NCBI GenBank assembly: GCA_963721455.1
Contig: CAVRJG010000052.1
Span: 64,001-128,000, forward strand
Direction of reading: 5' to 3'
Source of the DNA: an uncultured Methanosarcinaceae archaeon
GTDB taxonomy: Archaea > Halobacteriota > Methanosarcinia > Methanosarcinales > Methanosarcinaceae
Length of the DNA stretch: 64,000 nt
Positions 6,415-62,397 of this stretch are shown here, in pieces. Each line of letters begins with the position of its first letter. Positions within the stretch are counted from its first letter, which is position 1. Position numbers and translations under genes: made by a program. The notes beneath the pieces were generated by a model that saw only the letters and a program-made list of their open reading frames with translations, searched no databases and was not told the DNA's origin.

Positions 6415-6762
6415 GACCCCTTCATTTCCACTGGAGGGGTTTCAAGGATTGTAAAGAGAGCAAATTTTCCTTAAGATATCAAAAATATTAATAATAATAG
6501 TAAAATAAAATTTACTAAAACAACAGAATTGAGATTAAATTTTACAATTAATTTCTCAAAAATTTCTCACAAAATTCTAAATAAAATTTATTTTATTATA
6601 ATAAACTATATATACTATTAATTTTATAACTAAACAACGGTATTTTGCTCTTTAACTAAATAAAACAAAGTTTTATTTTGCTACTTAGAATATCTAAACC
6701 TCTTCACTGGAAACAATGGGGTCCGGGGGTTATATAAACGTTCCAGTGGAAATACAGGGGTC
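6415..6762. promoter_or_regulatory. putative replication origin core: inverted ORB boxes flanking an AT-rich DUE
   Basis: minus-strand ORB CTCCAGTGGAAATGAAGGGGTC (6415-6436); very AT-rich 6480-6700; plus-strand ORBs TTCACTGGAAACAATGGGGTC (6703-6723) and GTTCCAGTGGAAATACAGGGGTC (6740-6762); same intergenic region as cdc6. Confidence 0.85.
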
Positions 6763-6784
6763 TCTACTGAAAAATCCCTCGCCT

Positions 6785-6968
6785 TCTTTCATTTCCTTCG
6801 TTTTCTTTCATTTCCTTCGTTTCTTTCATTTCCTTCGTTTCTTTCATTTCCTTTCGTTTCTTTCATTTCCTTCGTTTCTTTCATTTCCTTCATTTCTTTC
6901 ATTTCCTTCATTTCTTTCATTTCCTTCATTTCTTTCATTTCCTTCGTTTCTTTCATTTCCTTCGTTTT
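6785..6968. repeat. tandem repeat, 18-bp pyrimidine-rich unit TTCTTTCATTTCCTTC(G/A)T, about 10 copies
   Basis: direct reading. Confidence 0.9.
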
Positions 6969-6996
6969 CTTTCCATTTACTTTTTTTACCCATTTA

Positions 6997-8266
6997 GGCA
7001 GTGTACCGAAAGTTCTGTAAAATATGATTGACTCTGTATCCTTTTCTTTTCACCACAAAAAAACAGGATGCAGAGTCAATGGTTAATTTGTTCTCACTCA
7101 TAAAAGATTATCTTGTCGATCAGGAAGATGGAATTCGCCAGCTAATTACCTGGTTTTTAAACCTTGCAATGGAGGAGGAAGCCCTCCTCCAAGCTGGTGC
7201 ACAACGTTATGAGCGGACTGATTCCCGTAAAGCCAGTAGAAATGGCTACAAACCCCGAACTCTCCTGACCAAGCATGGGAAACTCGAATTATTAAAGCCT
7301 CAATTCCGTGAGTTTCCCTTTGAAACCCAGGTGTTTGAGAAGTATTCGAGAGTTGAAAAGGCCATCTTAACCGCTATAGCGGAATCTTACCTTCAGGGTG
7401 TTTCCACCCGTAGGGTGGAAAGAAGATCATGATCGCTTTAGGAGTAGGTGAAATCTCAGCCTCTTCTGTTTCCAGGATTACTAAAGAACTGGATGAAAAG
7501 GTTGAAGAATTCCTCTCAAAACGAATAGAACATGAAATTCCTTACTTGTTTATTGATGCGACTTATTTCAAGGTAAGAGATGGGCTTCATTATGAAAACA
7601 AAGCTCTCTTCGTAGTTGCTGGGATCAGGGATGACGGTTACCGAGAGATACTTGGAACAAGATTGGCAGACAGTGAAGCTTCTATGTTCTGGGAAGATCT
7701 ATTCGAGGATCTGAAAGAAAGAGGGTTAAGAGGTGTCAAGTTAATCGTTTCTGATGGTCATAAAGGAATACAGAAAGCAGTCAGAGAATCCTTTATTGGA
7801 TCAAGTTGGCAGATGTGTCATGTACATCTGACAAGACAAGTTCTCAAGAAGGTGCCAAAAAAGAAGCAGAAAGAAGTGGCTGAGAAGATAAAAGAAGCAT
7901 TAGTCGACCGTCAGAACTTGAATCACCTGATTAGGGAACTGGACAGTATGGGGTATAAAAGCGCAGCTGATACCCTTGAAAGTTTTCAGTATGATGTAAT
8001 GAACTATATGCAGTTTCCAGAAAAACACTGGAAAAAAATAAGGACAACAAATATGATGGAAAGGACTAACAAGGAACTCAAAAGAAGAAGCAAGGTAGTT
8101 GGAGCATTTCCTAACCAGGACTCAGTATTGAGACTTGTAGTCTCAATACTAATTGATATAAATGAAGACTGGATCACAGGAAACAAGTATATAGTAATGG
8201 AACAGTAATCAAAAAAGAAGACGAAGGGGTAGAGAGTAGATTTTACAGAAAATTAGGCACACTGCC
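6997..8266 (+). mobile_element. IS256-family insertion sequence (1270 bp)
   Basis: 27-bp imperfect terminal inverted repeats GGCAGTGTACCGAAAGTTCTGTAAAAT / GGCAGTGTGCCTAATTTTCTGTAAAAT; 8-bp target duplication CCCATTTA at 6989-6996 and 8267-8274; encloses a Mutator-type transposase. Confidence 0.95.
7079..8208 (+). pseudogene. IS256-family DDE transposase split by a frameshift near 7420
   Basis: ORF 7028-7432 (RNGYKPR, YLQGVSTRRV) continues in another frame as 7429-8208 (FIDATY, VSDGHKG, WQMCHVH, RTTNMMERTNKELKRR). Confidence 0.88.
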
Positions 8267-8758: not shown

Positions 8759-8780
8759 TTCCAGTGGAAGTGAACGGGTC
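8759..8780 (+). promoter_or_regulatory. ORB-like box upstream of cdc6
   Basis: TTCCAGTGGAAGTGAACGGGTC resembles the origin ORBs. Confidence 0.6.
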
Positions 8781-9859: not shown

Positions 9860-11104
9860 ATGATAAAAGCTCAATCATTAGACGGCTTATTCGAAAAATT
9901 ACTTGACGGAAAATCAATTTTCAAAAACAAAGAAGTTCTTCGACCTTCTTACACGCCTGACCTGTTGCTGCACAGGAATGAACAGATTAACAGCCTTGCA
10001 ACAATCCTGGTCTCCGCACTCAGGGGGGAAACTCCTTCCAATGTACTGATTTATGGGAAAACAGGAACCGGAAAGACTGCGGTGACCCGGTATGTGGGAA
10101 AAGAACTTGAGAGGGTAAGTGAAGACAAATCACTTTTTTGCTCGGTTGTCTATATCAATTGTGAAGTGATCGACACGCAGTATCGGCTCCTTGCAAACCT
10201 TGCCAGGCATTTCGAAGAAGATGTTCCTATGACCGGGTGGCCGACTGACCAGGTCTTCATGAAATTCAAGGAAGCAATTGATTCGAGAGAGCAGGTCGTT
10301 ATCATAATTCTGGATGAAATTGACAAGCTGATCAAAAAAGGCGATGATGTTCTCTATAATCTCTCCAGAATTAATACAGACCTCCGGCAAGCTAAAGTCA
10401 GCATGATCGGGGTTTCAAACGATTTAAAATTCACTGAGTTTCTGGACCCAAGGGTCAAAAGTTCCCTGGGTGAAGAAGAACTGATTTTTCCGCCTTATGA
10501 TGCTGAGCAGATCAGCGATATCCTGAAACAAAGGGCAAAAATGGCTTACAACGACGGAGTACTGGGTGAAATGGTAATTCCCCTATGCGCTGCTTTTGCA
10601 GCCCAGGAACACGGTGATGCCCGCCGCGCACTTGACCTCCTGAGGGTGTCAGGGGAAATTGCAGAAAGGGAAAACCAGCCCCAGGTCCTTGAAGAGCATG
10701 TAAGGCGTGCTCAGGAAAAGATCGAAATCGACCGCGTTGTCGAAGTAGTAAGGACCCTCCCTACCCAGTCCAAACTCGTACTCTATAGTATTATTCTTCT
10801 GCGGAACCGCGGCAGAGAAGGTAAGAATGTCACAACTGGCGAGATGTACAATGTCTACCGCCAGCTCTGCCATCACATTGATGTGGATATCCTTACCCAG
10901 CGCAGGGTCACTGACCTGATGTCCGAACTTGATATGCTGGGAATAGTCAACGCAGTGGTCGTAAGCAAAGGTCGTTACGGCCGGACAAAAGAAATTTCCC
11001 TGAGCGTTCCAGTAGAAAACACTCGCAAGGTACTTCTTGAGGATTACAGGCTCAAGCCCCTGGTGGATTTTAAGGCGTCAGTTTTCAACAAGATGTTTTC
11101 ATGA
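9860..11104 (+). CDS. cdc6: Orc1/Cdc6 replication initiator
   Basis: Walker A GKTGTGKT, Walker B IILDEID, GDARRALDLL, C-terminal winged helix (SKGRYGRT); ATG at 9860 chosen over the upstream TTG. Confidence 0.97.
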   Translation: MIKAQSLDGLFEKLLDGKSIFKNKEVLRPSYTPDLLLHRNEQINSLATILVSALRGETPSNVLIYGKTGTGKTAVTRYVGKELERVSEDKSLFCSVVYINCEVIDTQYRLLANLARHFEEDVPMTGWPTDQVFMKFKEAIDSREQVVIIILDEIDKLIKKGDDVLYNLSRINTDLRQAKVSMIGVSNDLKFTEFLDPRVKSSLGEEELIFPPYDAEQISDILKQRAKMAYNDGVLGEMVIPLCAAFAAQEHGDARRALDLLRVSGEIAERENQPQVLEEHVRRAQEKIEIDRVVEVVRTLPTQSKLVLYSIILLRNRGREGKNVTTGEMYNVYRQLCHHIDVDILTQRRVTDLMSELDMLGIVNAVVVSKGRYGRTKEISLSVPVENTRKVLLEDYRLKPLVDFKASVFNKMFS

Positions 11105-18202: not shown

Positions 18203-19054
<852 letters not shown>

Positions 19055-19146
19055 CTATGTTCTTACTTCACATCCTTCTTTTATTTTCGGCTGTCTTTAC
19101 CTGTTGCTAATTTTTCTTTGCCGTATTTACCTCCATACTGCGTATT

Positions 19147-19992
19147 TCAGAGTATGGCTTTTATGATGTCGATCCTGCTTAGTATGCCCACTATATCTTC
19201 TCCATCGCTTACAGGAAGAGCAGTAACTTCTTCCTCAATCATTTTCTTTGCAGCTGCACTGACATTTTCATTTACGTCAATGGAAATTATCGGAGAAACC
19301 ATGATGTCTTCTGCGGTCAAAGGCACCTCTTTTACGTATCTGTAGATTTTCTGACCTGCAGGGGAAGATTTGCGCGCCATTTTAATATTTTTTGTGGAAA
19401 GTTTGCCTTCATTGTCAGTTAAGAGGTTTAAGGCAAGGCTTTTCCTGGAAATAATCCCTACAGATTTTCCGGCGTCATCTTTAACGACCACTCTTTCGAT
19501 CTCGTTTCTGTTCATTTCGTCAATTACATGGTTGATGGTATGGTGTCTGTGAACAGAAATGACATCCTCGGTCATTAATTTGGGAATTTTTGTTTTTATT
19601 TCCTCGGTGTTTTCCGCAACATAGCGCACGAGATCTGTCCTGGTCACAATACCTACGATATCATTCTTTACCACCGGAATGTTGTGCACCCTATTCTCAA
19701 GCATTAAGGCGGCTGCCTGGGAAATGGAAGCTTCGGGATAGATGGTAATAACCGATTCAGTCATCAATAGCTTGATAGGGATCTGATCTATCGGCCTCCT
19801 CCTCCAGAGGGGTTCGGCTTGAGCCAGACGGTTGCTGAGGTCTGATTTTGTGACGATTCCCACCATCTTGCCCTCGTTGAGGACAAGCAACGTACTGATT
19901 TTATATTTTAACATCAGTTTTCTTGCATATGACACGGGCTCATCTGCGTTTAGGACATACACAGGTGAACTCATGATGTCCGCCACATTCAT
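19147..19992 (-). CDS. CBS domain protein (4 CBS)
   Basis: VADIMS, GIVTKSD, GIVTRTD, GILSRID. Confidence 0.9.
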
Positions 19993-20324
19993 GGAATACC
20001 TCCTTCACTTTTACAATATATAAGTATCAATTATTATAGTTTTTGAATCGGATGTAAACTTCACAATTTTAGCTGTAAATGTCGAAGTTTTAGAGAAGTA
20101 ATACCTGTCTTTTGCTGAAATGAAGACTAATTTGAAAAGACCCTTATTTTAGATCATCTACAACATAGAATCTCCAGATCTCAGAGTTGCCTTTCGGTCT
20201 ATCCGGCCAGAGAATTATTTTTCTTTCTAAAATTCCTGAAAAATTGAACCCGGAGGTTTTTCGGGCTCGGTTTAGCTCCAAACAAATTTCACTTTTGGAC
20301 CAGTTTGATTAGCCATCCTGGAAT

Positions 20325-21323
20325 TCATTCAAAAGATCTCAGGAAATCGCTTTCTGTAATTATGCCACGCAGCAATCCTTCTTCCAGGATTGGGAGCGAA
20401 CCGATTTTTTTATCGAGCATGATTTTCATCGCTTTTCCCATGTCTGTGTCCGGGCTGGTCCATATCAGTTCTTTGGAGATAATAGAACCTACAGGCTGGT
20501 CAAGAGCTTCATGAATATTTCCTGTTGTCAGCTTTCTGAAAGCGTCTCCTCTTCCAAGGAAGTGGACGATGTCAGAGGCGGTAACTATTCCGGCAAAAAT
20601 ACCATCCTTAACTACAGGAAGCCTTCTGAGCCTATTCTCTACCATTACTTTTGCTGCGTGTCCAATGGGCGTATCTGTTGAAACCATCTTGACATTCCTG
20701 GTCATGTATTCATCAACAGTTTTGTTTGTCACGATTCCGCCCATCAGTTCTACTGCGTTTCTTTCGGTAAAAATTCCAACTACCTGCATGCCATCGTTCA
20801 CGATTGGCAGACCCCCTGTCCTTCTCTCAAGCATCGTCGAAATGGCATCTTTAAAGTCTGCGTGCTCATGAAGATAAGCAGCATCAATTTCCATTATCTG
20901 CCTCACTTCCTCATTTATTGCAGCAAGAAGGTTACCTTTGAAGCGGTTTTCAACAAGCAGGTTCTTTTTCCCACCTCCCAGGAAATCGATAATATCCACG
21001 GAAGTGACGACTCCTTCCAGCCTCCGCGTTCCGGCGTCTGTAATAGGAATACGCCTGAACCTCCTTTCAGTCATGATCTTAATTGCTTCCATAATTGTTG
21101 CAGTGGGAGGAAGGGTTATTACGTCCCTTGTTGCAAGGGAGAGGATCCGTCCCGGGTGTTCCGAAATGCGGGACTTGAAATCAGGGCCTATCCGCATCGT
21201 ACCCATGCTGCTTATCATGTGAGGGTCTTTCTGTTGCGCGTTCTTTCCCGGTTTGTTCAGATTTGGCTGAACTTTCGTTTTGTCGGCTGATACAAATGTC
21301 TTATTTTTGTTCAATAGGATCAC
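20325..21323 (-). CDS. CBS domain protein (4 CBS; start uncertain)
   Basis: FRRIPI, GGLPIV, RRLPVV, GSLPI, GIITESD. Confidence 0.88.
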
Positions 21324-21624
21324 CGAATTCGAGTTGCAATTAATTGCTTTTTTTCATATTCCGTTTTTCTCTTCCTGCCAAGTTGCAAGAATTTTCCCGG
21401 AGTCTGCCGTTTATTTCTCAGCAAACCCGGGTTTGCCCCTGGAAAAAACAAAACCTGAAAGCAATTTCTCCCGAATCTTTCCGAGCGCTTTCTTTACTTG
21501 CCAATCTATAATCATTATTAATGATAATCTTTAATGTTATAATCTTTTTGCGTGAGAGTTTGCTCTTTACTTTTTCACATTAATTCTTTGGCCGGTTTTC
21601 ACCATTTCACTGGAAGTTTTCCTT

Positions 21625-22440
21625 TCAAAAACGGTTTTCAGAGGTTTGTTCAGGCCATCCACTGACAATGGATCTCAGAAGGTCCTGTCTGTCAGCGATT
21701 CCGGATACTTTTCCATGTTCATCTACTACGGTGACTCTTCCGATATCATGGTGAATAATCATCTCAATTGCACGCCGGACGGAATCGCTTTCTGAAAGAG
21801 TATATGTGGGAGTTGACATTACCGTTTCAACCTTCGGACTGTCATTGGGCCTTGTTGCTCTTTCATCTTCCACAGATATCCGCACAACGCCCGATTTGAG
21901 TATATCCCTTCGGGTTATCATTCCAATGGGTTCACCCTTCTTTGAAACTACAGGAATTCCCGTGTAATCTGTCTCAAGCATACGCCCCCAAATCTTGGCC
22001 ACTCTTTCCTCTTGAGAGCAGGTTTCGACTTTTTTTGTCATAATTTCTTGTATGGTTTTGGGAAGATTTCTTGGAAGCTCCACGTTTCTAAGAATATCCA
22101 CATTACTCAGGACACCGACAACCGTATGGTCAACAGTTGATACGACAACCGGAACCCTGTTTTGTTTCGACTGCACCATCAGTTTTGCAGCTCTCATCAC
22201 ATCCATATCCGGAGTGACTGTCGGGGACTGCCCTGCATATCCACTCACCGTGACATTCGACTTGGTAGACGTAACCCTCAGGATGTCCTGGTCACTCAGC
22301 ATTCCCACAAGCCTGTTCTCTTCGTCAACAACAACAAGACTTCGAAGAAGGTGATCACGCATCAGCTGACGGGCGTGAGTTACGAAGTCTTCTGCTTTGA
22401 CACTTATAGGCCCTTCTGACATAATCTCGCTGACATTCAT
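21625..22440 (-). CDS. CBS domain protein (4 CBS)
   Basis: VSEIMS, RVPVV, GIPVV, GMITRRD. Confidence 0.9.
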
Positions 22441-22503
22441 TGTTTACCTTCCTATGGTTTCTTTAAGACAGAAGATTTGAAACTCGAGATTTCAAGGTTG
22501 TAT

Positions 22504-23133
22504 TCATTCGTAATTCTCTCCTTCTTCTTGCCGACAGTTTTCGCATAAATACCTGCCGTCAACTAATTTCAGGTCTGCTGAGTGATACAAACAGGACTCA
22601 CATATTCCTGTACTGAAGTCTTCTTCAATCTCCTCAATTGAAGGAGTAGAGAGGAGAGCTTCCCGATTCATATCAATAAGGTCCTTGAGTATGGTACTGA
22701 GCCCCGGTGTTACCATCAGAATATCAGTATTCGAAACCACTCCTATTATTGTACCGTTTTCCAGGACTGGCAGCCTTTTGATATTTGCTTTTAACATGAT
22801 TTCGGAAGCTTTTACTACACTTGTTTCAGGCTTCACGGTTACCAGTGGAGTGGAGAGGATTTTGCTCGCAGCCACCTCACTTGGTTTTCTGTCCTCTGTA
22901 ACTATGCCCTTCACAAGGTCCCTTTCAGTTATGATTCCCATGGCCTTTCCGCTTTCAGTAATAACAATGCTCCCTGCATCACGACTGACCATTTCCCTTG
23001 CAATAGCAGGAATATCTGTGTTGATATCCATTGTTATGACTGTTTTATTCATAACTTCAGCAACCGAGATCTCTCTCTGAATCTCTCTATTGTGAATGTC
23101 GGTACCTATTTCCCTTTCAGGGTCATCTGCCAT
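22504..23133 (-). CDS. CBS domain protein with C-terminal zinc ribbon
   Basis: CBS pair (GIITERD, KRLPV) followed by CESC...CENC. Confidence 0.88.
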   Translation of the reverse strand: MADDPEREIGTDIHNREIQREISVAEVMNKTVITMDINTDIPAIAREMVSRDAGSIVITESGKAMGIITERDLVKGIVTEDRKPSEVAASKILSTPLVTVKPETSVVKASEIMLKANIKRLPVLENGTIIGVVSNTDILMVTPGLSTILKDLIDMNREALLSTPSIEEIEEDFSTGICESCLYHSADLKLVDGRYLCENCRQEEGENYE

Positions 23134-23203
23134 TGACCGCCGTTCCCCCTTTACGTTCCGCATTTCCAAACCCGGCAATTTAAAATATAAAAGATCTTCA
23201 GGT

Positions 23204-23728
23204 TTCCAGTGGAAAAACACTTCATATTGTTTTAGTTTTCCTTCTTAATTCAGGCCCCGCAATCATACTTTTTAAAGCCGATATTCCGGTGAGGCCTGTC
23301 ATTTCCGGATATATTTTTTATCCGCTCCTTCTGAAGTGTCTTCCCCACACTTTTCGGACGTTTTTATAACACTTATATATACGAGTCAATGGTACATAAC
23401 GATAACGGCATTTGTTTTTTTTGTAGAGAAAAGAAGCTTGCATAATGTCAGGAGCGCATTTTTTTTAAGGTCCCTGCTCTTTCGTTCATGATGAGAAACT
23501 TATGGAAGTTTCGCAGGAAATTTTTCAGAACCCCGTTGTTTCCACTGGAGGCTTTTGCTGAGAATGAAAAATATCCAGTTATCTGGAAAAAGTATAAGAA
23601 TAAATGCAGAAGAAAAGTATATTTTAGAAAGCAGGTTTATGCAGTTTAGAAGAAACCCCAATTATATTTGTAATGCTTTCTATTTTTCTCACAGGAAATT
23701 TTTCAGACCCCCAAATTTCCACTGGAAC
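23204..23728 (-). promoter_or_regulatory. second cluster of ORB boxes with no adjacent cdc6
   Basis: CTCCAGTGGAAACAACGGGGT (23530-23550, minus), GTTCCAGTGGAAATTTGGGGGTC (23706-23728, minus), core TTCCAGTGGAAA (23204-23215). Confidence 0.7.
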
Positions 23729-23813
23729 TTACTTCCTAATTTTTTATCGTGAAAAATTGCAGGTTTAAGGAATAAATAAAAAAGCAAAAGCCGGATAAAA
23801 GAAGGAAGAATGA

Positions 23814-25268
23814 TTAAAGCATAATCACTCTGCTGCGGTTCCCAATACTCAACTCGATTTCTTCATTCAGACCATACTTCGCATACGCGTCAATGATCTG
23901 GATTTCGGAGTCAATATCAAGATCCTCGATCACATATGCCTGCTCTCCCCAGAGAGTGAGCCTGATGCTGCCTGTTTCGTCTTTAAGTTCGAGATTTGCA
24001 ACCACACTTTCGGTCCCGTCTTCCCTCTCAAACTCCCGGAGTTCCCCTATTTCGGAAACCTTACCCTGGACTGAATAGCTTTCTCCAGGGATAATATCGG
24101 CAATATTCGTAAACTTTTCCCTGTACTCAATTTCTTTTTCAGTCTTCTGGATGATCCCTCTGGCTCCCAGGTTCAGTTCCACCTGCTGGCTGAAGGCATT
24201 TTCTCGAGAATAAGCATGGAATACTTCTATGGTCTGGTCAAAATCCACTTCGTCCAGAAAACTGGTTTTTTCATCCCACAGTGTCAGCCTGATTTTGCCT
24301 GTGGAATCACCAAGAAGGAGGTTTCCTATTCTTCCTGTAGACCCGTCTTTTTTCTCAAAGGTCCGGATTTCCGCTATATCAAGTACCCTTCCGGAAATGT
24401 TAATATTGTTCATATCAGCCTTGATATCAGCAATCGGGGTAAATTCCTCTTCGTACTCTACCGTTTTCTCACTTTTCCTGATAATACTTCGGTTTCCCAC
24501 CTGCAGTTCAACTTTCTGAGTAAAGGCGTTTTCCCGGGCATAAGCATTGATTAGCTCTACAGTATCTCCACATTCTATCTGGTTCAAAAACTCGGTTTTT
24601 TCGTCCCAGAGAGTGACTCTGAGTGTGCCTGTAGCATCTCCAAGCAGCAGGTTTCCTACCTTGCCGCTGCTGCCGTCTTTTCGCTGGAAGGTTTTTACTT
24701 CTGAAATGTCCAGGACTTTTCCTGTCAGATTCAGGTCTCCCGTACCGTCCTTTACATCCTTTATCTTCTGGCTGCTCGCAGCCACATCGATTTCGTCCTC
24801 ACTTTCGGTCAGGACTCCATTATTTCCGATATTGACTTCCACTCCTGAGTATCCCTGCTTCGCATACCCGCTGATCTGGAGGTTTTGTCCTGCCTTGACT
24901 TTTTCAGCTTTTATCAGGTCTGCCATATTGTCCCAGAGAGTTACCCTGATTTTACCGGTCTCGTCTCCGACGATCATATTTCCGACTCTACCTATGGTCC
25001 CGTCGTTTCGGGTAAATTCTTTAGTATCGAAAACTGAAACGACCCTTGCAACAAAGTTAACCGGTCCGCTTTCGGCTGTAATGTCTTCAATTTTCACACT
25101 GTCCCGACCTACATCCGAAAATCCGAGTTCGTTGGCAACCAGCATGGCAGCCATAGGTTCATCGCAAAGCCCTCCCATGTTCTCGACCTTTTCCTGGACG
25201 CGCTGCAGGAAGTCTTCCTTACTGATCACATGGCTGAGCTTTTTATAGATCGATTCAATATCTGTCAT
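23814..25268 (-). CDS. rpa: replication protein A (single-stranded DNA binding, four OB folds)
   Basis: four repeats of F.R.DG..G.V.N...GD.TG.IR.TLW. Confidence 0.92.
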   Translation of the reverse strand: MTDIESIYKKLSHVISKEDFLQRVQEKVENMGGLCDEPMAAMLVANELGFSDVGRDSVKIEDITAESGPVNFVARVVSVFDTKEFTRNDGTIGRVGNMIVGDETGKIRVTLWDNMADLIKAEKVKAGQNLQISGYAKQGYSGVEVNIGNNGVLTESEDEIDVAASSQKIKDVKDGTGDLNLTGKVLDISEVKTFQRKDGSSGKVGNLLLGDATGTLRVTLWDEKTEFLNQIECGDTVELINAYARENAFTQKVELQVGNRSIIRKSEKTVEYEEEFTPIADIKADMNNINISGRVLDIAEIRTFEKKDGSTGRIGNLLLGDSTGKIRLTLWDEKTSFLDEVDFDQTIEVFHAYSRENAFSQQVELNLGARGIIQKTEKEIEYREKFTNIADIIPGESYSVQGKVSEIGELREFEREDGTESVVANLELKDETGSIRLTLWGEQAYVIEDLDIDSEIQIIDAYAKYGLNEEIELSIGNRSRVIML

Positions 25269-25555
25269 ATTATCCCCTTTAATGTTGATTCTTATCTTCA
25301 GTATTTGTTATTTGCCTCAATTCTCGTGGCAATACATGTTAGTGACTGTTATTATTCTGAATCCAGTTTCGGTATTACAGCGTAAAATTCAAAAACTGTT
25401 TTATGAGAGTGGTAGATTAGATTAACAGTTATGAGAGTAGTAGATTAGATTAACAGATCTGAGCATTGTTATGGAAATTCAAAATGTTTCCGGTTAAGTT
25501 TGAGGTGAAATTTCAGATTATAGTTTCGGACGTAAATATTTAAACTAATTCCCTC

Positions 25556-27564: not shown

Positions 27565-28581
27565 TCAGTTCACCGATACTTCAAAAAGGTCTTCCTTTTC
27601 CTCTATCCTGAATTTGACATCCAGAAACTGTTCAGTAACCCAGATATTTGTCGCAGCATGGAGAGAGAGTTCCCGGACAGTGTAAGAACTGTTTCCTGCA
27701 AGAGCCATATATGGTATTAGCTGGTCTGCCAGATGCATGTCCACAGAGGCTCTTGCTTTAAGTTCAGTAATAACTTCTTCTGCAGCACGTTTGCCGACTT
27801 TCTCTGCAGGGAGTCCTCTTTCACCAAGCGCACTTCCACCTACATAGCCTGCCCAGAGAGTTATTCCACTTCCAGTGGAAAAAGCTTCAAAGGATTGGGT
27901 TTCGATCAGGGAGGAGTATCCGGCTTCAAGTAATCTGGCACTGGCGGCTTCTGCCTGGCGTAAAGGCACATGAGCCGGAAGATTCGACGCATGAGAAATC
28001 CCTCTGATTTCTTCCTCTTCTTTTAAAAAGTGAAATCCCCGAAGCCTGCATGGCTCAAAAAAAGCTGAAACTTTTCCTCCCCCCTTCGGATAGTAACCAT
28101 GTTCCTTCAGGGCCACATTACCTGCATAGCCCAGCCGCTCCAGAGCCCTGAAAGTTACCTGCTGCAGGTAGTCCACTGTCGGAGCCCAGGCTACATCAGT
28201 TCCTCCCCTTACCGTGAGTTCGACCTTTTCTCTCGCAAAGGGCAGGGCAGGCATAAGGCACTGGAGGAGCAGGGTTATGCTTCCTGCGGTCCCAATATCA
28301 ATATCATACTTGCCCCCCTTTATTTCCACTGGAGCAAAGGAAAGCTCTGTTGAGCCTGGAAAAAGTCCCGAAACCCGAGCCTCACAGATCCTGGCTGTAA
28401 CTTCCAGAGCTTTTAAATGCTGCTGCTTCAGGCCAGGATTTGGCCTGTTTCTCCTGATATTCGTGACCCTGATCTCTTTTCCAGTGACTGCGGAAAGAGC
28501 AACAGCCGTTCTGACTAACTGCCCTCCTCCCTCCCCGTAGGAACCGTCAATTTCTAACACTCCCTTCCCCCACATTTTCAT
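27565..28581 (-). CDS. rtcA: RNA 3'-terminal phosphate cyclase
   Basis: IDGSYGEGGGQ, RPNPGL..QH, GGTDV, GYYPKGGG, VDMHLADQL. Confidence 0.95.
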   Translation of the reverse strand: MKMWGKGVLEIDGSYGEGGGQLVRTAVALSAVTGKEIRVTNIRRNRPNPGLKQQHLKALEVTARICEARVSGLFPGSTELSFAPVEIKGGKYDIDIGTAGSITLLLQCLMPALPFAREKVELTVRGGTDVAWAPTVDYLQQVTFRALERLGYAGNVALKEHGYYPKGGGKVSAFFEPCRLRGFHFLKEEEEIRGISHASNLPAHVPLRQAEAASARLLEAGYSSLIETQSFEAFSTGSGITLWAGYVGGSALGERGLPAEKVGKRAAEEVITELKARASVDMHLADQLIPYMALAGNSSYTVRELSLHAATNIWVTEQFLDVKFRIEEKEDLFEVSVN

Positions 28582-60091: not shown

Positions 60092-61558
60092 TCAAGAGCA
60101 AGATTCTTTCGATTCCTTCAGTCTCAGATTTTTCTCTCTTATCCGGCATCCGAGACCGCAAAGAAGGGCTGTAACTTCGGTTTCGACAGAATCTGCATCA
60201 CAATCCCCAAAAATTGTTATCCTATAAGTAACTCCGAGCCTTTCCACCTTTCTTTCTTTTTGGGTTTCTACCCAATTAAGTCCTCTGTAGATATCACTGA
60301 TTTCGCAGGCTGCAAGCTGTCTGGTTGTGTTTATAGCATTGAGGATAATTTCAGGGTCAGCGCCTTCCGGAATAATGACTGAAACGTCCTTGGTAGAGTG
60401 TTCAAGGTTTTCTTTTCTCCATTCCGTCAGTTCTGGTTCTGAAAGGAGGCGAAGGTTTTCAAGCTTGAGTTTTATGAATTTGTTTTTTATAGAAGGGGCA
60501 GTACCTTTTGAGACCAGTTTTGTAAGAACTATTTCATCCGGTCCCACCTTTTCCAGAGTACCGACATGGATTTTTCCGGAATAAAAATGGGAAAAGCCAC
60601 AGACTTTTCCGACGGAGTTCAGGATAGTTTCGTATTCGGCTATTCTGGAATTTATGAGTTTGTCCGATTTGCGCAGGGCATGAGCAGTATCTCCGTATTG
60701 TCGGGCAGCAGCCTTCATTTTTCTAGCAAAGCCTTCTTCGTCATGGGCCCTCACAAGACTTGAGAGTTCTTCGCATTCCCTGATGAATGCCTTATGAACC
60801 TCCAGGACGCCAGGGTTTTCCATCTGGATAAGGGCATACAGGTAAGGATTCTGGCCGAGAATCCTGCCTACGAAGTCCAGCATTATGTCGTAAACGGGGC
60901 TTACGAATTTTCTGGATTTCTTTACATCAAAGTCTAACCTGTCAATGGTCGTACCTATGCTAATATAAGCAAAATGAGTAAGTCCCTGCACAACCGAGAC
61001 AAGGCTATCGTGTTCGGCTGCAGTGGTAATTTCAACATGGGCTCCGCTCTCCTCAAAGAGTTCTCTTACTATCGGAAACCATTTTTCCGAGCGCCCCTTT
61101 ACAGGGACAAGAATGACAGTCTGCCCTCTGATAGTGCGAATTGTGGGGCCGAACATTGGATGAGTGCCCAGAATTTCCACATCCGAAGGGGCGAATTTTC
61201 TCATAGCTTCTACAGGCTTTACTTTGATGGAAGTAAAGTCCATAAGAAGGCTTCCAGCTTTCATTTTTGGAGCAATTTCTGCAATAGTCTCTTCAGTTAC
61301 ATTGATGGGTACAGAGACTATTACTATATCACTTTCCGGAACAGCTGCTTCAAGATCCGAGGCAAAAGGGACTTCCAGTTTTCTGGCAATTTCGGTTTTT
61401 CCTCCTTTTCCCCAGACTGTAACTTCGTAACCTCTTTCTTTGAAAAAACGGGTAAACCACTGTCCCATTTCTCCGGTTCCGCCCAGAATCAGAACCTTCG
61501 TTTTTCCAGGACTTCGATCCCGACGGTTTTGGTTCCGGGTTTCCAGATCCGCACTCAA
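60092..61558 (-). CDS. tyrA: prephenate dehydrogenase with C-terminal extension
   Basis: GGTGEMG, DFTSIK, HPMFGP, EHD...VVQGLTH. Confidence 0.9.
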   Translation of the reverse strand: MSADLETRNQNRRDRSPGKTKVLILGGTGEMGQWFTRFFKERGYEVTVWGKGGKTEIARKLEVPFASDLEAAVPESDIVIVSVPINVTEETIAEIAPKMKAGSLLMDFTSIKVKPVEAMRKFAPSDVEILGTHPMFGPTIRTIRGQTVILVPVKGRSEKWFPIVRELFEESGAHVEITTAAEHDSLVSVVQGLTHFAYISIGTTIDRLDFDVKKSRKFVSPVYDIMLDFVGRILGQNPYLYALIQMENPGVLEVHKAFIRECEELSSLVRAHDEEGFARKMKAAARQYGDTAHALRKSDKLINSRIAEYETILNSVGKVCGFSHFYSGKIHVGTLEKVGPDEIVLTKLVSKGTAPSIKNKFIKLKLENLRLLSEPELTEWRKENLEHSTKDVSVIIPEGADPEIILNAINTTRQLAACEISDIYRGLNWVETQKERKVERLGVTYRITIFGDCDADSVETEVTALLCGLGCRIREKNLRLKESKESCS

Positions 61559-62397
61559 GCCTGCAAAGCCTCCAGAACAGTTTTTTTCATGAGTTCCACT
61601 GGAGGTTCAATTCCTGTCCAGAGCCTGAAAGCTTCAGCTCCCTGATAAACAAGCATTAAGACCCCACTCACAGTTTTTGCGCCTGCAGCTTTTGCTTCCC
61701 TTAAGAGCCTGGTTTCCAGGGGGTTGTAGACAATGTCAAAAACAGTAAGTTCAGGGTGAAGATTTTCTGCTGTGGTAATGGCAGTGTCTGTATTCGGGTG
61801 CATCCCGAGAGTTGTGGTATTGATCAGGACATCTGCATCTTGCAGCAGGGCTTTTAATCCTGAGAGCCCTCTTCCCCTTACATTCCCCAAAATGGCTGCG
61901 GCTGAGATATCTTTTGCAAGTTCAACTGCCCTTTCTTCGGTCCGGTTTATTATTGTGATTTCAGCACCATCGGCTGCAAGCTGGAAAGCTATCGCCCTTG
62001 CTGCTCCGCCTGCCCCTGCAACTACTATCTCAGACCCCCTTATTTCCACTGCAGCCTCACGAAGCGCCTGTTTTGCCCCTAAGCCGTCGGTATTGTACCC
62101 CTTGATTTCTCCGTTTTTCCCGAAAACGACAGTATTTACAGCTCCTATCCTTTCTGCCAGTGGGTCGGGCCTGATGCAGTCGAGTTTTAAAGCTGCCTCT
62201 TTCAAGGGCACTGTCAGGTTGAGCCCTCCAAATCCCATAGCTTCAGCCCCGAGAATTGCTTTTTCCAGTTTTTCGGGCTTGACCCTGAATGCATGATAGA
62301 TGCAGTCCATTCCAAGGGCTGAAAAAGCTGCATTATGCATTGCAGGAGAAAGGGAATGACCTATGGGGTCCCCAAATACGCCAAAAACTTGCTTCAT
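61555..62397 (-). CDS. aroE: shikimate dehydrogenase
   Basis: HSLSP.MHN, NLTVPLK, GAVNT, NTDG, GAGGAARA, MLVYQG. Confidence 0.96.
   Translation of the reverse strand: MKQVFGVFGDPIGHSLSPAMHNAAFSALGMDCIYHAFRVKPEKLEKAILGAEAMGFGGLNLTVPLKEAALKLDCIRPDPLAERIGAVNTVVFGKNGEIKGYNTDGLGAKQALREAAVEIRGSEIVVAGAGGAARAIAFQLAADGAEITIINRTEERAVELAKDISAAAILGNVRGRGLSGLKALLQDADVLINTTTLGMHPNTDTAITTAENLHPELTVFDIVYNPLETRLLREAKAAGAKTVSGVLMLVYQGAEAFRLWTGIEPPVELMKKTVLEALQA

Follow-up and report, generated by a model that had tools for sequence, protein, structure and literature searches.

Introduction

In Escherichia coli, datA and DARS are clusters of initiator boxes that lie away from the origin and do not initiate replication; they act on DnaA-ATP/ADP by defined catalytic effects and need IHF or Fis. 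We know of no datA- or DARS-like biochemistry for archaeal Orc1/Cdc6, and, to our knowledge, ORBs outside the origin have been shown to be initiator-bound only in Pyrococcus, with no function assigned to them. Orc1-2 of Sulfolobus islandicus, which is not known to be the origin initiator, is a transcription regulator of the DNA-damage response that recognizes a different, short motif. Gene-regulatory roles for Orc1/Cdc6 have been suggested (PMC5333045). Pyrococcus and Thermococcus possess a second conserved ORB cluster, located inside dp1 and outside oriC, to which Cdc6/Orc1 binds both in vivo and in vitro (Matsunaga et al. 2007, PMC1904270). In Haloarcula hispanica, an ORB-rich negative regulatory region adjoins oriC2, and its effect was shown genetically (Wu et al. 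2014, as cited in PMC5333045). The Methanomicrobia ORB motif of Ori-Finder 2 is TCCA[GC]T[GT]GAAA[CT][AG]A[AT]GGGGT (PMC4164010, Table 1).

Here we analyze a pair of ORBs located between rpa1 and a CBS-domain gene in DNA from an uncultured Methanosarcinaceae archaeon; the whole stretch of 64,000 nucleotides is referred to as the window. Like the dp1 cluster as described in PMC1904270, the pair consists of conserved boxes of the origin type that lie close to replication genes and outside the core of the origin; they are bound by initiator in Pyrococcus and known here from their sequence. The dp1 cluster lies 1.5 kb from oriC and flanks cdc6 (PMC1904270), whereas the rpa1–CBS pair, although conserved, is 12.4 kb from the cdc6 stop codon and ∼16.9 kb from the AT-rich core, or unwinding element, of the origin (6441-6702). 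The pair is also intergenic and linked to rpa1 and the CBS gene, and its two boxes keep a fixed geometry of 177 bp. The H. hispanica region likewise consists of extra ORBs that are not an initiation site yet modulate an origin, a role for which the rpa1–CBS pair is a candidate, but that region adjoins its origin and the pair is 17 kb away (PMC5333045). The pair resembles datA and DARS in being a box cluster outside the origin and, judging from its anatomy, probably also in not initiating replication, the initiator in E. coli belonging to another family (DnaA). It would resemble the Orc1-2 system in placing an initiator-family protein near promoters outside origins, if Cdc6-1 binds there; the rpa1–CBS boxes differ in being full origin-type ORBs situated far upstream of the putative transcription start. 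With the cdc6-adjacent oriC ORBs of Methanosarcina and other Methanomicrobia the pair shares the dyad core, the G-string, and the GGGGT-n-CTGAAA extension seen at the origin's right ORB, but its boxes are direct, and it has neither an 84% AT element nor an adjoining initiator gene. In the full-text papers searched on Methanosarcina origins and replication protein A, we found no description of ORBs at rpa1. The view of the initial annotation that this might be an undescribed system holds for the locus within those papers and is tempered by the close precedent of the Pyrococcus dp1 cluster as presented in PMC1904270.

The locus bears on how archaea that use Orc1/Cdc6 limit origin firing and on the roles of initiators away from origins. 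It is a sharply defined module, with two boxes, fixed geometry, cross-genus conservation, and measurable selection, and there are good genetic tools for M. acetivorans, M. mazei, and M. barkeri, so that box mutations could tell apart regulation of adjacent genes by the initiator, control of the initiator by these sites, and initiation there.

Anatomy and Rarity of the ORBs

The minus strand carries two full ORBs, ORB-A (23531-23549) and ORB-B (23708-23726), each composed of TCCAGTGGAAA-N4-GGGG followed by a CTGAAAAATTTCCTG tail. Sharing the minus strand, the two boxes form direct repeats whose starts are 177 bp apart. In the ORB-A unit (23511-23549), the core TCCAGTGGAAA occupies 23539-23549 and is followed by N4, the G-string at 23531-23534, and the tail CTGAAAAATTTCCTG at 23514-23528; in the ORB-B unit (23689-23727), the core is at 23716-23726, the G-string at 23708-23712, and the tail at 23692-23706. 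The dyad core TCCAnTGGAAA is exact in both boxes, and the G-string GGGG[T] is found four bases 3′ of it in each. Core and G-string agree with the Methanomicrobia motif, and a by-eye comparison of N4 with that published regular expression puts ORB-A one position off and ORB-B three (PMC4164010). A longer unit is common to the two boxes (23511-23534 versus 23689-23712, 92% alike). The CTGAAAAAT tail is found after an origin ORB too (6742-6775). There are three occurrences of the CTGAAAAATTTCCTG tail in the genome, two of them at the rpa1–CBS locus, where it is kept together with the boxes, and its start, GGGGT-n-CTGAAA, is also present 3′ of the origin's right ORB and of an ORB at a third locus. 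A TTAGAAGAAA motif that is common to this third locus was rejected as a specific signal, since it has 23 genome copies.

The spacer between the units (23550-23688) contains two near-invariant blocks, TTTTGCTGAGAATGAAAAA (23553-23571) and the TATA-like AATTATATTTGTAATGC (23660-23676). An invariant TATA-like AATTATATTTG lies ∼25 bp ahead of the ORB-B unit, and upstream of ORB-A there is no comparable TATA-like element. The pair is placed in a 680-bp intergenic region that adjoins rpa1 (23814-25268, minus strand), encoding replication protein A with four OB-folds as identified by OB-fold families; the rpa1 stop codon is 88 bp from ORB-B, and dnaG is 8 kb away. On the other side is a gene for a CBS-pair protein (22504-23133, minus strand; 209 aa from the ATG at 23133; Pfam CBS, E 3e-23), the first of five tandem CBS-domain genes (18203-23133). 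The initial annotation had described two full minus-strand ORBs with G-strings, direct and ∼180 bp apart, each in a longer shared repeat whose tail recurs after an origin ORB, located just downstream of RPA, without cdc6, and ∼17 kb from the origin core, all of which was borne out. Its AT-rich spacer proved only moderately so, at 70.6% AT compared with 84% in the origin element. A third ORB core, absent from that annotation, is found at 23205-23215 on the plus strand, in what is putatively the 5′ leader of the CBS gene, and is inverted with respect to ORB-A; this mini-ORB has no G-string and is kept, with at most one mismatch, in just 10 of 30 genus loci.

The canonical origin core (6417-6760) comprises a minus-strand ORB (6417-6435), the unwinding element (6441-6702; 82-84% AT), a degenerate plus-strand ORB (6703-6721), and a plus-strand ORB (6742-6760), and the least stable 100-bp stretch of the whole window falls within it. 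A degenerate third origin ORB (8760-8778, plus strand) lies upstream of cdc6-1 (9860-11104, plus strand), which encodes the Orc1/Cdc6 initiator (Pfam Cdc6_C, Cdc6_lid, and AAA families), and a Mutator-family transposase gene (7028-8208) is inserted between this degenerate box and the origin core.

Exact full ORBs are present in five copies in the 3.94-Mb assembly, all of them between window positions 6417 and 28333 and thus within 22 kb: two flank the cdc6-adjacent origin, two form the rpa1–CBS pair, and one, of the same polarity as the pair, is inside rtcA (28315-28333, minus strand). When up to two mismatches were allowed, the full-ORB pattern gave eight matches in the window, compared with a mean of 0.15 and a largest value of 1 in 100 shuffles, and the dyad core with at most one mismatch gave 15 matches against a shuffle mean of 1.8. 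Exact ORBs were found in 57 of 59 genus genomes, and a reversed control pattern had no matches in any of the 59. The ORBs of the window are far more numerous than expected by chance.

Conservation across Genera

A comparison across Methanosarcina genomes, as put forward in the initial annotation, showed the pair, scored as two cores with at most two mismatches each, to be retained in all 30 loci retrieved. ORB-A and ORB-B are separated by 177-178 bp at 28 of the 32 genus loci measured; the exceptions include G029 (247 bp) and G027 (168 bp). In an alignment of 29 sequences (A1), ORB-A has a mean identity to G000 of 0.86, the spacer 0.81, and ORB-B 0.89, whereas rpa1 third codon positions reach 0.70 and flanking non-coding DNA 0.55-0.62. 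Boxes and spacer are therefore under purifying selection, and, as far as sequence comparison can tell, the boxes are shown to be true, selectively maintained ORBs of the origin type.

Five further genera (g13, g2, g5, g12, and g11) were scanned for rpa1-adjacent ORBs. These encode full-length rpa1 orthologs, with matches covering query residues 1-482 or more at 48-90% identity, and matches to rpa1 in the remaining genera were shorter. At least one ORB is present on the rpa1 strand between rpa1 and the CBS gene in four of them (g13, g2, g5, and g12). The pair is found in all five g13 loci, with the boxes 167-168 bp apart, and in one of two g2 loci, 135 bp apart, the second g2 locus being cut by a contig end. 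A single ORB is present in each of three g5 loci, and in g12, where only a single box occurs, six of eight loci have an ORB with at most two mismatches and one more has a degenerate one.

In G090, a g5 genome, an origin-like structure has a DnaG-KptA-RPA-ORB-CBS block on its TraB side. The G-string of the G090 ORB points away from that structure and those of the window ORBs point toward the origin, whereas the boxes keep the same orientation with respect to rpa1 and the CBS gene in both. This arrangement contradicts a fixed polarity relative to the origin, which was consequently rejected as a conserved trait, and it hints that ORB polarity may follow the neighboring genes rather than the origin, a weak argument because translocation of the block would move the box regardless of its function.

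Length Coupling to the CBS Promoter Region

The promoter block of the CBS gene (23346-23440, minus strand) contains a TATA-like TTATATATA (23373-23381) and a near-invariant upstream block, TCAATGGTACATAACGATAACGGCATTT; its mean identity is 0.84, and it is also kept in g13 and g2. The distance from the block to the ORB-A core is 140-171 bp in 36 of the 37 loci where the block was found, and this length is steady even though the linker shows low sequence conservation (0.55). Between ORB-B and the rpa1 stop codon, the distance ranges from 75 to 421 bp across loci. Length coupling on the promoter side, together with slack on the rpa1 side, favors a local, transcription-linked role at least as strongly as a datA/DARS-like control site. 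Helical phasing of the ORB-ORB and ORB-promoter distances (periods of 8-13 bp) was also considered; the mean resultant length R was 0.2-0.3 for the promoter distances, and for the ORB pair a single cluster of near-identical values accounted for the higher figures, so the idea was dropped.

Four metatranscriptome runs were placed on 22400-25400 as assembled contigs and consequently give neither strand nor level. RNA contigs from three runs of two studies terminate without a loose end at 23342-23346, which hints weakly at a CBS transcription start at ∼23346; positions 23347-23633 are without cover, which is uninformative either way, and a single RNA-library contig bridges 23634-23978. The ORBs would lie ∼185 and ∼365 bp upstream of this putative start. 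Known archaeal regulators act much nearer to TATA/BRE elements, and the distance therefore counts against a promoter-type role.

The locus is probably a non-initiating binding site for Cdc6-1 (Orc1/Cdc6) rather than an origin core, to judge from its boxes and their setting. The Cdc6-bound dp1 cluster of Pyrococcus (PMC1904270) is a precedent for such a site. As to what such a site does, we tentatively favor an accessory Cdc6-1 binding module coupled to the downstream CBS promoter region, whose main role would be local transcriptional coupling; in this we infer Cdc6-1 binding at the locus, the start at ∼23346, and any regulatory effect. Two Cdc6-1 monomers would sit in tandem on the two full ORBs, ∼177 bp apart and with matching polarity, and the spacer elements and promoter block would complete a fixed nucleoprotein architecture of ∼480 bp (23346-23727), placed 3′ of rpa1 and 5′ of the first CBS-domain gene. 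The likeliest output would be local, in that initiator occupancy, and possibly its ATP/ADP state, would change transcription of the CBS cluster and perhaps also alter rpa1 3′-end formation or antisense transcription. Expression of origin-proximal genes would thereby be coupled to the initiator level, and any buffering of free initiator would arise as a by-product.

Satellite ORBs and a Possible Role in Replication Control

Other ORBs outside the origin have a different setting. The rtcA-internal ORB is kept with at most one mismatch in 28 of 30 rtcA genes, and its seven third codon positions are conserved at 0.95 compared with 0.705 for the gene, ranking first of 333 windows. This box is under DNA-level selection on synonymous sites, and its position inside coding sequence parallels that of the dp1 cluster (PMC1904270). 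Another extra-origin ORB cluster is found in a 1.1-kb spacer between two convergent genes. Since neither the rtcA box nor the convergent-gene cluster is a promoter element, a function shared by all these sites would more likely concern replication or chromosome organization. The rpa1–CBS module is also steadily near the origin: in g1, g13, and G090, an origin-type ORB/AT-rich structure is ∼16-18 kb away, and an origin-linked role fits this equally well; in two g12 genomes the module is 8-31 kb from the nearest other exact ORBs, and in G090 cdc6-1 itself is 96 kb from the rpa1 ORB.

These observations bear on an appreciable, if unlikely, alternative to local transcriptional coupling, namely that the locus is a replication-control or architectural element whose satellite ORBs bind Cdc6-1 to buffer or sequester it, change its nucleotide state, or loop to oriC, thereby tuning firing. 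Such an element would be a functional analog of datA/DARS, an option that the initial annotation had raised. The ORBs are of the type present at oriC, exact copies are confined to the 22 kb around it, and synonymous-site selection on the rtcA ORB is unexplained by promoter logic. Precedents exist in the Pyrococcus dp1 cluster (PMC1904270) and the negative region of H. hispanica oriC2 (PMC5333045). Two or three boxes, however, would offer little titration capacity, polarity relative to the origin differs between the window and G090, and the close length coupling to the promoter block of the CBS gene would be unneeded. Nor do we know of any catalytic mechanism of nucleotide exchange or hydrolysis for archaeal Orc1 on DNA, which also counts against control of this kind. 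Four complete genomes (G001, G003, G005, and G012) have an additional ORB cluster at a distance of 275-520 kb from the origin, so that origin proximity is not general.

A broader proposal is that the satellite ORBs of Methanosarcinaceae (the rpa1–CBS pair, the rtcA box, and the convergent-gene cluster) form a network that serves as an initiator-control system, capturing or remodeling Cdc6-1 soon after firing and coupling re-initiation to how much single-strand-binding protein is available and to CBS proteins that sense adenosine nucleotides. We regard this as speculative and unlikely; if true, it would be the first functional datA/DARS counterpart outside bacteria.

Comparison with the Replication Origin

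The initial annotation had raised the possibility of an auxiliary or bipartite origin, for which we found little support. At the real origin, as examined for both arms in G000 and G005, the ORBs are inverted with their cores facing the unwinding element, whereas ORB-A and ORB-B are direct; their sole inverted partner, the mini-ORB at 23205, has no G-string, and the G-string sides would face inward, the opposite of oriC. The locus also lacks a strongly AT-rich, easily melted element. The AT content of the spacer, which 5.5% of all 143-bp windows reach, exceeds the window average of 56%, but 15 other 100-bp peaks in the window are more AT-rich, and the spacer's least stable 100 bp has a value of −113.9 kcal/mol compared with −97.0 kcal/mol at oriC. 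The AT, MK, and RY disparity maxima of the 226-kb contig (C52) are at 75.0-75.1 kb, corresponding to window ∼11.0 kb and next to cdc6, although gene orientation confounds these curves and their resolution is limited; they are already falling across 23.5 kb. In the orientation of its boxes and the composition of its spacer, the rpa1–CBS locus is without origin-type anatomy.

An auxiliary or dormant origin without an adjacent initiator gene, at which Cdc6-1 on the ORBs would load MCM in 23550-23690 or the flanks under some conditions at least, is in our estimation distinctly unlikely. Archaeal origins without an adjacent initiator gene exist, the full ORBs are of the high-affinity type, the spacer is moderately AT-rich, and the 680-bp intergenic region is beside replication genes. 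The RY maximum of G090 (52 kb) is nearer to the rpa1 ORB (49.6 kb) than to the origin-like structure (31 kb). Haloarchaea have documented dormant origins (PMC5333045), and the number of origins in Methanosarcina is presented in PMC3984812 and PMC5333045 as a Z-curve prediction, never mapped. Beyond the direct boxes, a spacer less AT-rich and more stable than the origin element, and the position of the disparity peak, this reading is opposed by the conservation of spacer sequence and not merely composition, which is unusual for unwinding elements, and by the presence of a single ORB only in g5 and g12. Caution is warranted in that motif-based origin predictors may label such intergenic regions as origins.

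RNA and Protein Candidates

It is highly improbable that the 40-bp units serve something other than Cdc6-1, whether Cdc6-2, another protein binding the tail or spacer, or a short noncoding RNA from the TATA-like element before ORB-B, because the rarity of the tail and its conservation with the boxes, the invariance of AATTATATTTG, and the RNA contig across 23634-23978 are outweighed by a core and G-string identical to those of origin ORBs, the recurrence of GGGGT-n-CTGAAA at the origin and the third locus, the lack of a comparable TATA-like element at ORB-A, and the finding of neither covariation nor an Rfam family. An Rfam search of the whole window at gathering scores detected only rRNA and tRNA matches, and at a permissive threshold 22400-24400 gave chance-level matches only, the best archaeal one being sRNA162 (20.2 bits, where the gathering score is 78). 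Folding of 29 sequences with RNAalifold yielded −10.26 kcal/mol and a covariation term of −0.16, indicating no conserved RNA structure in this alignment, and the long-range pairs that it predicted merely join the two palindromic ORB cores. A small protein was rejected as a candidate, since, among the 22 of 30 loci examined, the 62-aa ORF at 23564-23752 stays at least 60 aa long in only 4. A scan for bacterial promoters and terminators was set aside as not applicable to archaea; its two terminator-like matches were the ORB palindrome itself.

Two Direct ORBs between rpa1 and a CBS-Domain Gene

The initial annotation described two full minus-strand origin recognition boxes (ORBs) arranged as direct repeats with a shared tail, and this description is borne out. 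ORB-A (23531-23549, TCCAGTGGAAACAACGGGG) and ORB-B (23708-23726, TCCAGTGGAAATTTGGGGG), each comprising a dyad core and a G-string, lie 177 bp apart on the minus strand, and each is continued by a common tail, (T)CTGAAAAATTTCCTG, forming minus-strand repeated units of ~40 bp at 23511-23549 and 23689-23727. The plus strand holds a third ORB core at 23205-23215, this one lacking a G-string. In published Orc1-DNA structures, the dyad core is occupied by the winged helix and the G-string side by the AAA+ domain. The boxes occupy a 680-bp intergenic region whose right-hand neighbor is the gene for an RPA with four OB-folds (rpa1, 23814-25268, minus strand) and whose left-hand neighbor is a CBS-pair gene (22504-23133, minus strand). 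The latter is the first of five tandem CBS-domain protein genes on the minus strand (18203-23133), between cdc6 and rpa1; in genus g5 of the same family, orthologs of two of the five likewise come after rpa1.

The canonical origin (6417-6760) consists of a minus-strand left ORB (6417-6435), an 82-84% AT unwinding element containing the window's least stable 100 bp, and plus-strand right ORBs, degenerate at 6703 and exact at 6742. A further degenerate ORB at 8760 lies beyond the origin core and before cdc6-1 (9860-11104), parted from the core by a Mutator-family (IS256-like) transposase gene (7028-8208) split in two ORFs. In the relative G005, the AT-rich element is likewise bordered by inverted ORBs, and the origin-core and cdc6-proximal ORBs are only ~440 bp apart. 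An 18-bp tandem repeat, TTCTTTCATTTCCTTCGT (6784-6982; 10.8 copies, 95% matches), directly adjoins the right-hand origin ORB.

At ≤2 mismatches, the full-ORB pattern has 8 matches in the window against 0.15 expected, and 22 across the source assembly, 11 of them on the 226-kb contig that holds the window and 3 in one other intergenic region. Exact full ORBs number five in the entire 3.94-Mb assembly, all within window positions 6417-28333: two at the origin, ORB-A and ORB-B, and one within rtcA. Exact ORBs occur in 57 of 59 Methanosarcina genomes, and the reversed pattern, used as a control, had no match in any of the 59.

Conservation and Coupling to the CBS Promoter

Positional conservation, which the initial annotation had proposed checking, extends throughout the genus. 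An 801-bp query (23100-23900) matched in all 59 Methanosarcina genomes searched; where a complete genome has its numbering start at the origin, the match falls ~15-26 kb from coordinate 1. Both boxes with their tails were on the same strand in all 30 loci fetched. Box-to-box spacing in 32 Methanosarcina loci was 177-178 bp in 28, 179-180 bp in three, and 247 bp in one (G029); another, G027, present in the exact-pattern list only, has 168 bp. Spacing was 167-168 bp in five loci of genus g13 and 135 bp in one of g2. Mean identity to the source assembly across 29 other species was 0.86 for the ORB-A unit, 0.89 for the ORB-B unit, 0.84 for a promoter block upstream of the CBS gene (23346-23440), 0.55 for the linker (23441-23510), and 0.61 for 23728-23813. 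The spacer between the boxes reached 0.81 versus 0.70 at rpa1 third codon positions, which argues that the spacer itself is under selection. Its steadiest parts, TTTTGCTGAGAATGAAAAA adjoining ORB-A and the TATA-like AATTATATTTGTAATGC ahead of the ORB-B unit, are both still discernible in g13. The feature at the rpa1 locus is real, conserved, and specific.

RNA-library contigs over the CBS gene, from three runs in two studies, all stop without a loose end at 23342-23346, about 30 bp downstream of the TATA-like element TTATATATA (23373-23381); this common end is a weak hint of a CBS transcription start. A near-invariant block, TCAATGGTACATAACGATAACGGCATTT, lies upstream of the putative start and is kept in g13 and g2 too. 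Of the 37 loci in which this block could be located, 36 place it 140-171 bp from the ORB-A core, and in g2 it is 72 bp away, even though the linker itself varies in sequence. Between ORB-B and the rpa1 stop the interval is anywhere from 75 to 421 bp. Given this steady promoter side and variable rpa1 side, the ORB pair and promoter block behave like a single module of constrained length, with insertions tolerated towards rpa1. One RNA-library contig (23634-23978) extends from within rpa1, past the stop codon and over ORB-B, as far as the spacer.

The Module in Other Genera

The family was searched with the RPA protein, and the flanks of the matches were scanned for ORBs on the rpa1 strand downstream of the gene. 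An ORB pair was found in 5/5 g13 loci, a single ORB in 3/3 g5 loci, and an ORB in one of two g2 loci, the other being interrupted by a contig end. In g12, six of eight loci carry an ORB at ≤2 mismatches and one more a degenerate copy. None was found in the single g11 locus scanned, nor in the three from g3 and g14, where the RPA match is shorter. The g5 loci, and four of the five g12 loci with flanks read for ORFs, have a CBS gene after the ORB, so that the box is always within the rpa1-CBS spacer.

The distance from cdc6-1 to rpa1 is 16 kb in g13, 42-62 kb in g12, and 96-129 kb in g5, and cdc6-1 is not always located at the origin. The complete g5 genome G090 has a typical origin structure at C1:30865-31207, adjoining a TraB ortholog, in which inverted ORB-like boxes, each with a single mismatch, enclose DNA reaching 88% AT. 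The disparity curves of this genome stay on a plateau between about -100 and +70 kb, have their maxima at 25-52 kb, and are already declining at cdc6-1 (145134-146360). This cdc6-1 lies 114 kb from the origin-type structure and has its own upstream pair of one-mismatch boxes (146698 and 146865). The G090 rpa1 ORB, at 49.6 kb, is 18 kb from the origin-type structure, and in two g12 genomes 8-31 kb separate the rpa1 ORB from the closest other exact ORBs; the module is thus origin-proximal wherever this can be judged. In G090 the DnaG-KptA-RPA-ORB-CBS block is on the TraB side with the G-string directed away from the origin, whereas in the window the G-string is directed towards it. Box polarity is therefore not conserved with respect to the origin but is constant with respect to rpa1 and the CBS gene.

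Possible Functions of the Module

Judged from sequence, the boxes are probably a non-initiating binding module for Cdc6-1. The closest precedent is a second ORB cluster inside the Pyrococcus dp1 gene, 1.5 kb from oriC (PMC1904270; also PMC2643942). In the first report, Cdc6/Orc1 binds that cluster in vivo as well as in vitro, and the cluster is conserved across Thermococcales with no function assigned to it (PMC1904270); binding at the rpa1 locus is predicted. The literature searched on Methanosarcina origins and replication protein A yielded no description of ORBs at rpa1.

Tentatively, the main role of such a module would be to couple locally to the transcription of the CBS cluster and of rpa1, because of the length coupling to the promoter block, the polarity that follows the genes, and the TATA-like element between the boxes. 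What speaks most against a purely transcriptional reading is a pair of other sites, which cannot be ordinary promoter elements. One is the exact full ORB within rtcA (28315-28333, minus strand, in the sense direction of rtcA, 27565-28581), which encodes the peptide APVEIKGG and is retained by 28 of the 30 rtcA genes at ≤1 mismatch. Across the seven third codon positions of this ORB, conservation is 0.95 versus 0.705, the highest of any such run in the gene (rank 1 of 333), and this freezing indicates selection on the DNA site itself. The other is a locus of two to three direct ORBs at C45:97816-98600 of the source assembly (L031 4725-5821; orthologous loci L032-L034), in a 1.1-kb spacer between convergent genes for a DeoC-family aldolase and a radical-SAM protein and with no adjacent initiator gene. 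A role in controlling the initiator or the architecture of oriC is less probable for the rpa1 module; in Haloarcula hispanica, a review describes negative regulation of oriC2 by an ORB-rich region (PMC5333045). Other factors take the remaining probability.

An auxiliary origin, as the initial annotation had suggested, or a dormant one is unlikely, and the module is probably not an origin. The Methanosarcina origin is itself a single Z-curve prediction, never mapped according to the sources (PMC3984812, PMC4164010, PMC5333045), and under Ori-Finder 2 rules intergenic ORB regions beside replication genes may be listed in DoriC as predicted origins. The ORBs are genuine, but origin anatomy is absent: they are direct, whereas those of the true origin are inverted with cores towards the unwinding element. 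The spacer is moderately AT-rich (70.6%); 5.5% of all 143-bp windows attain that level, and the 15 windows of 100 bp with the highest AT content do not include it. At its least stable 100 bp the spacer measures -113.9 kcal/mol versus -97.0 at oriC, and it is kept in sequence, beyond mere composition. Along the contig, the AT, MK, and RY curves are highest at ~11.0 kb in the window and fall over 23.5 kb, where a minus-strand gene run confounds them. The locus beside the aldolase gene looks more origin-like and, compared with the rpa1 locus, is the better candidate second origin: it has the same flanking genes in 3/3 other species checked, behind its last ORB comes a 100-bp stretch with 83-86% AT, and four complete genomes (G001, G003, G005, and G012) place it 275-520 kb from the origin; its G-strings in the source assembly carry one mismatch. 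An RNA gene (no Rfam family, no covariation-supported structure) and a small protein (a 62-aa ORF disrupted in most of the relatives, with 22 of 30 loci read) were rejected.

Related organisms have good genetic tools, and the function of the rpa1-locus module is directly testable in such tractable hosts.

One-mismatch ORB variants sharing the change TGCAGTGGAAAT occur at 62035-62053, within a minus-strand ORF (61555-62397), and at C52:52434-52452, ~55 kb right and 18 kb left of the origin, towards which both G-strings point; the two variants could be chance occurrences. Two more RPA1-like sequences in the source assembly (C3:107143-108486, with an in-frame TAA, and C49:5976-7319) are 75% and 70% identical to the window RPA and may be paralogs or second-strain DNA.
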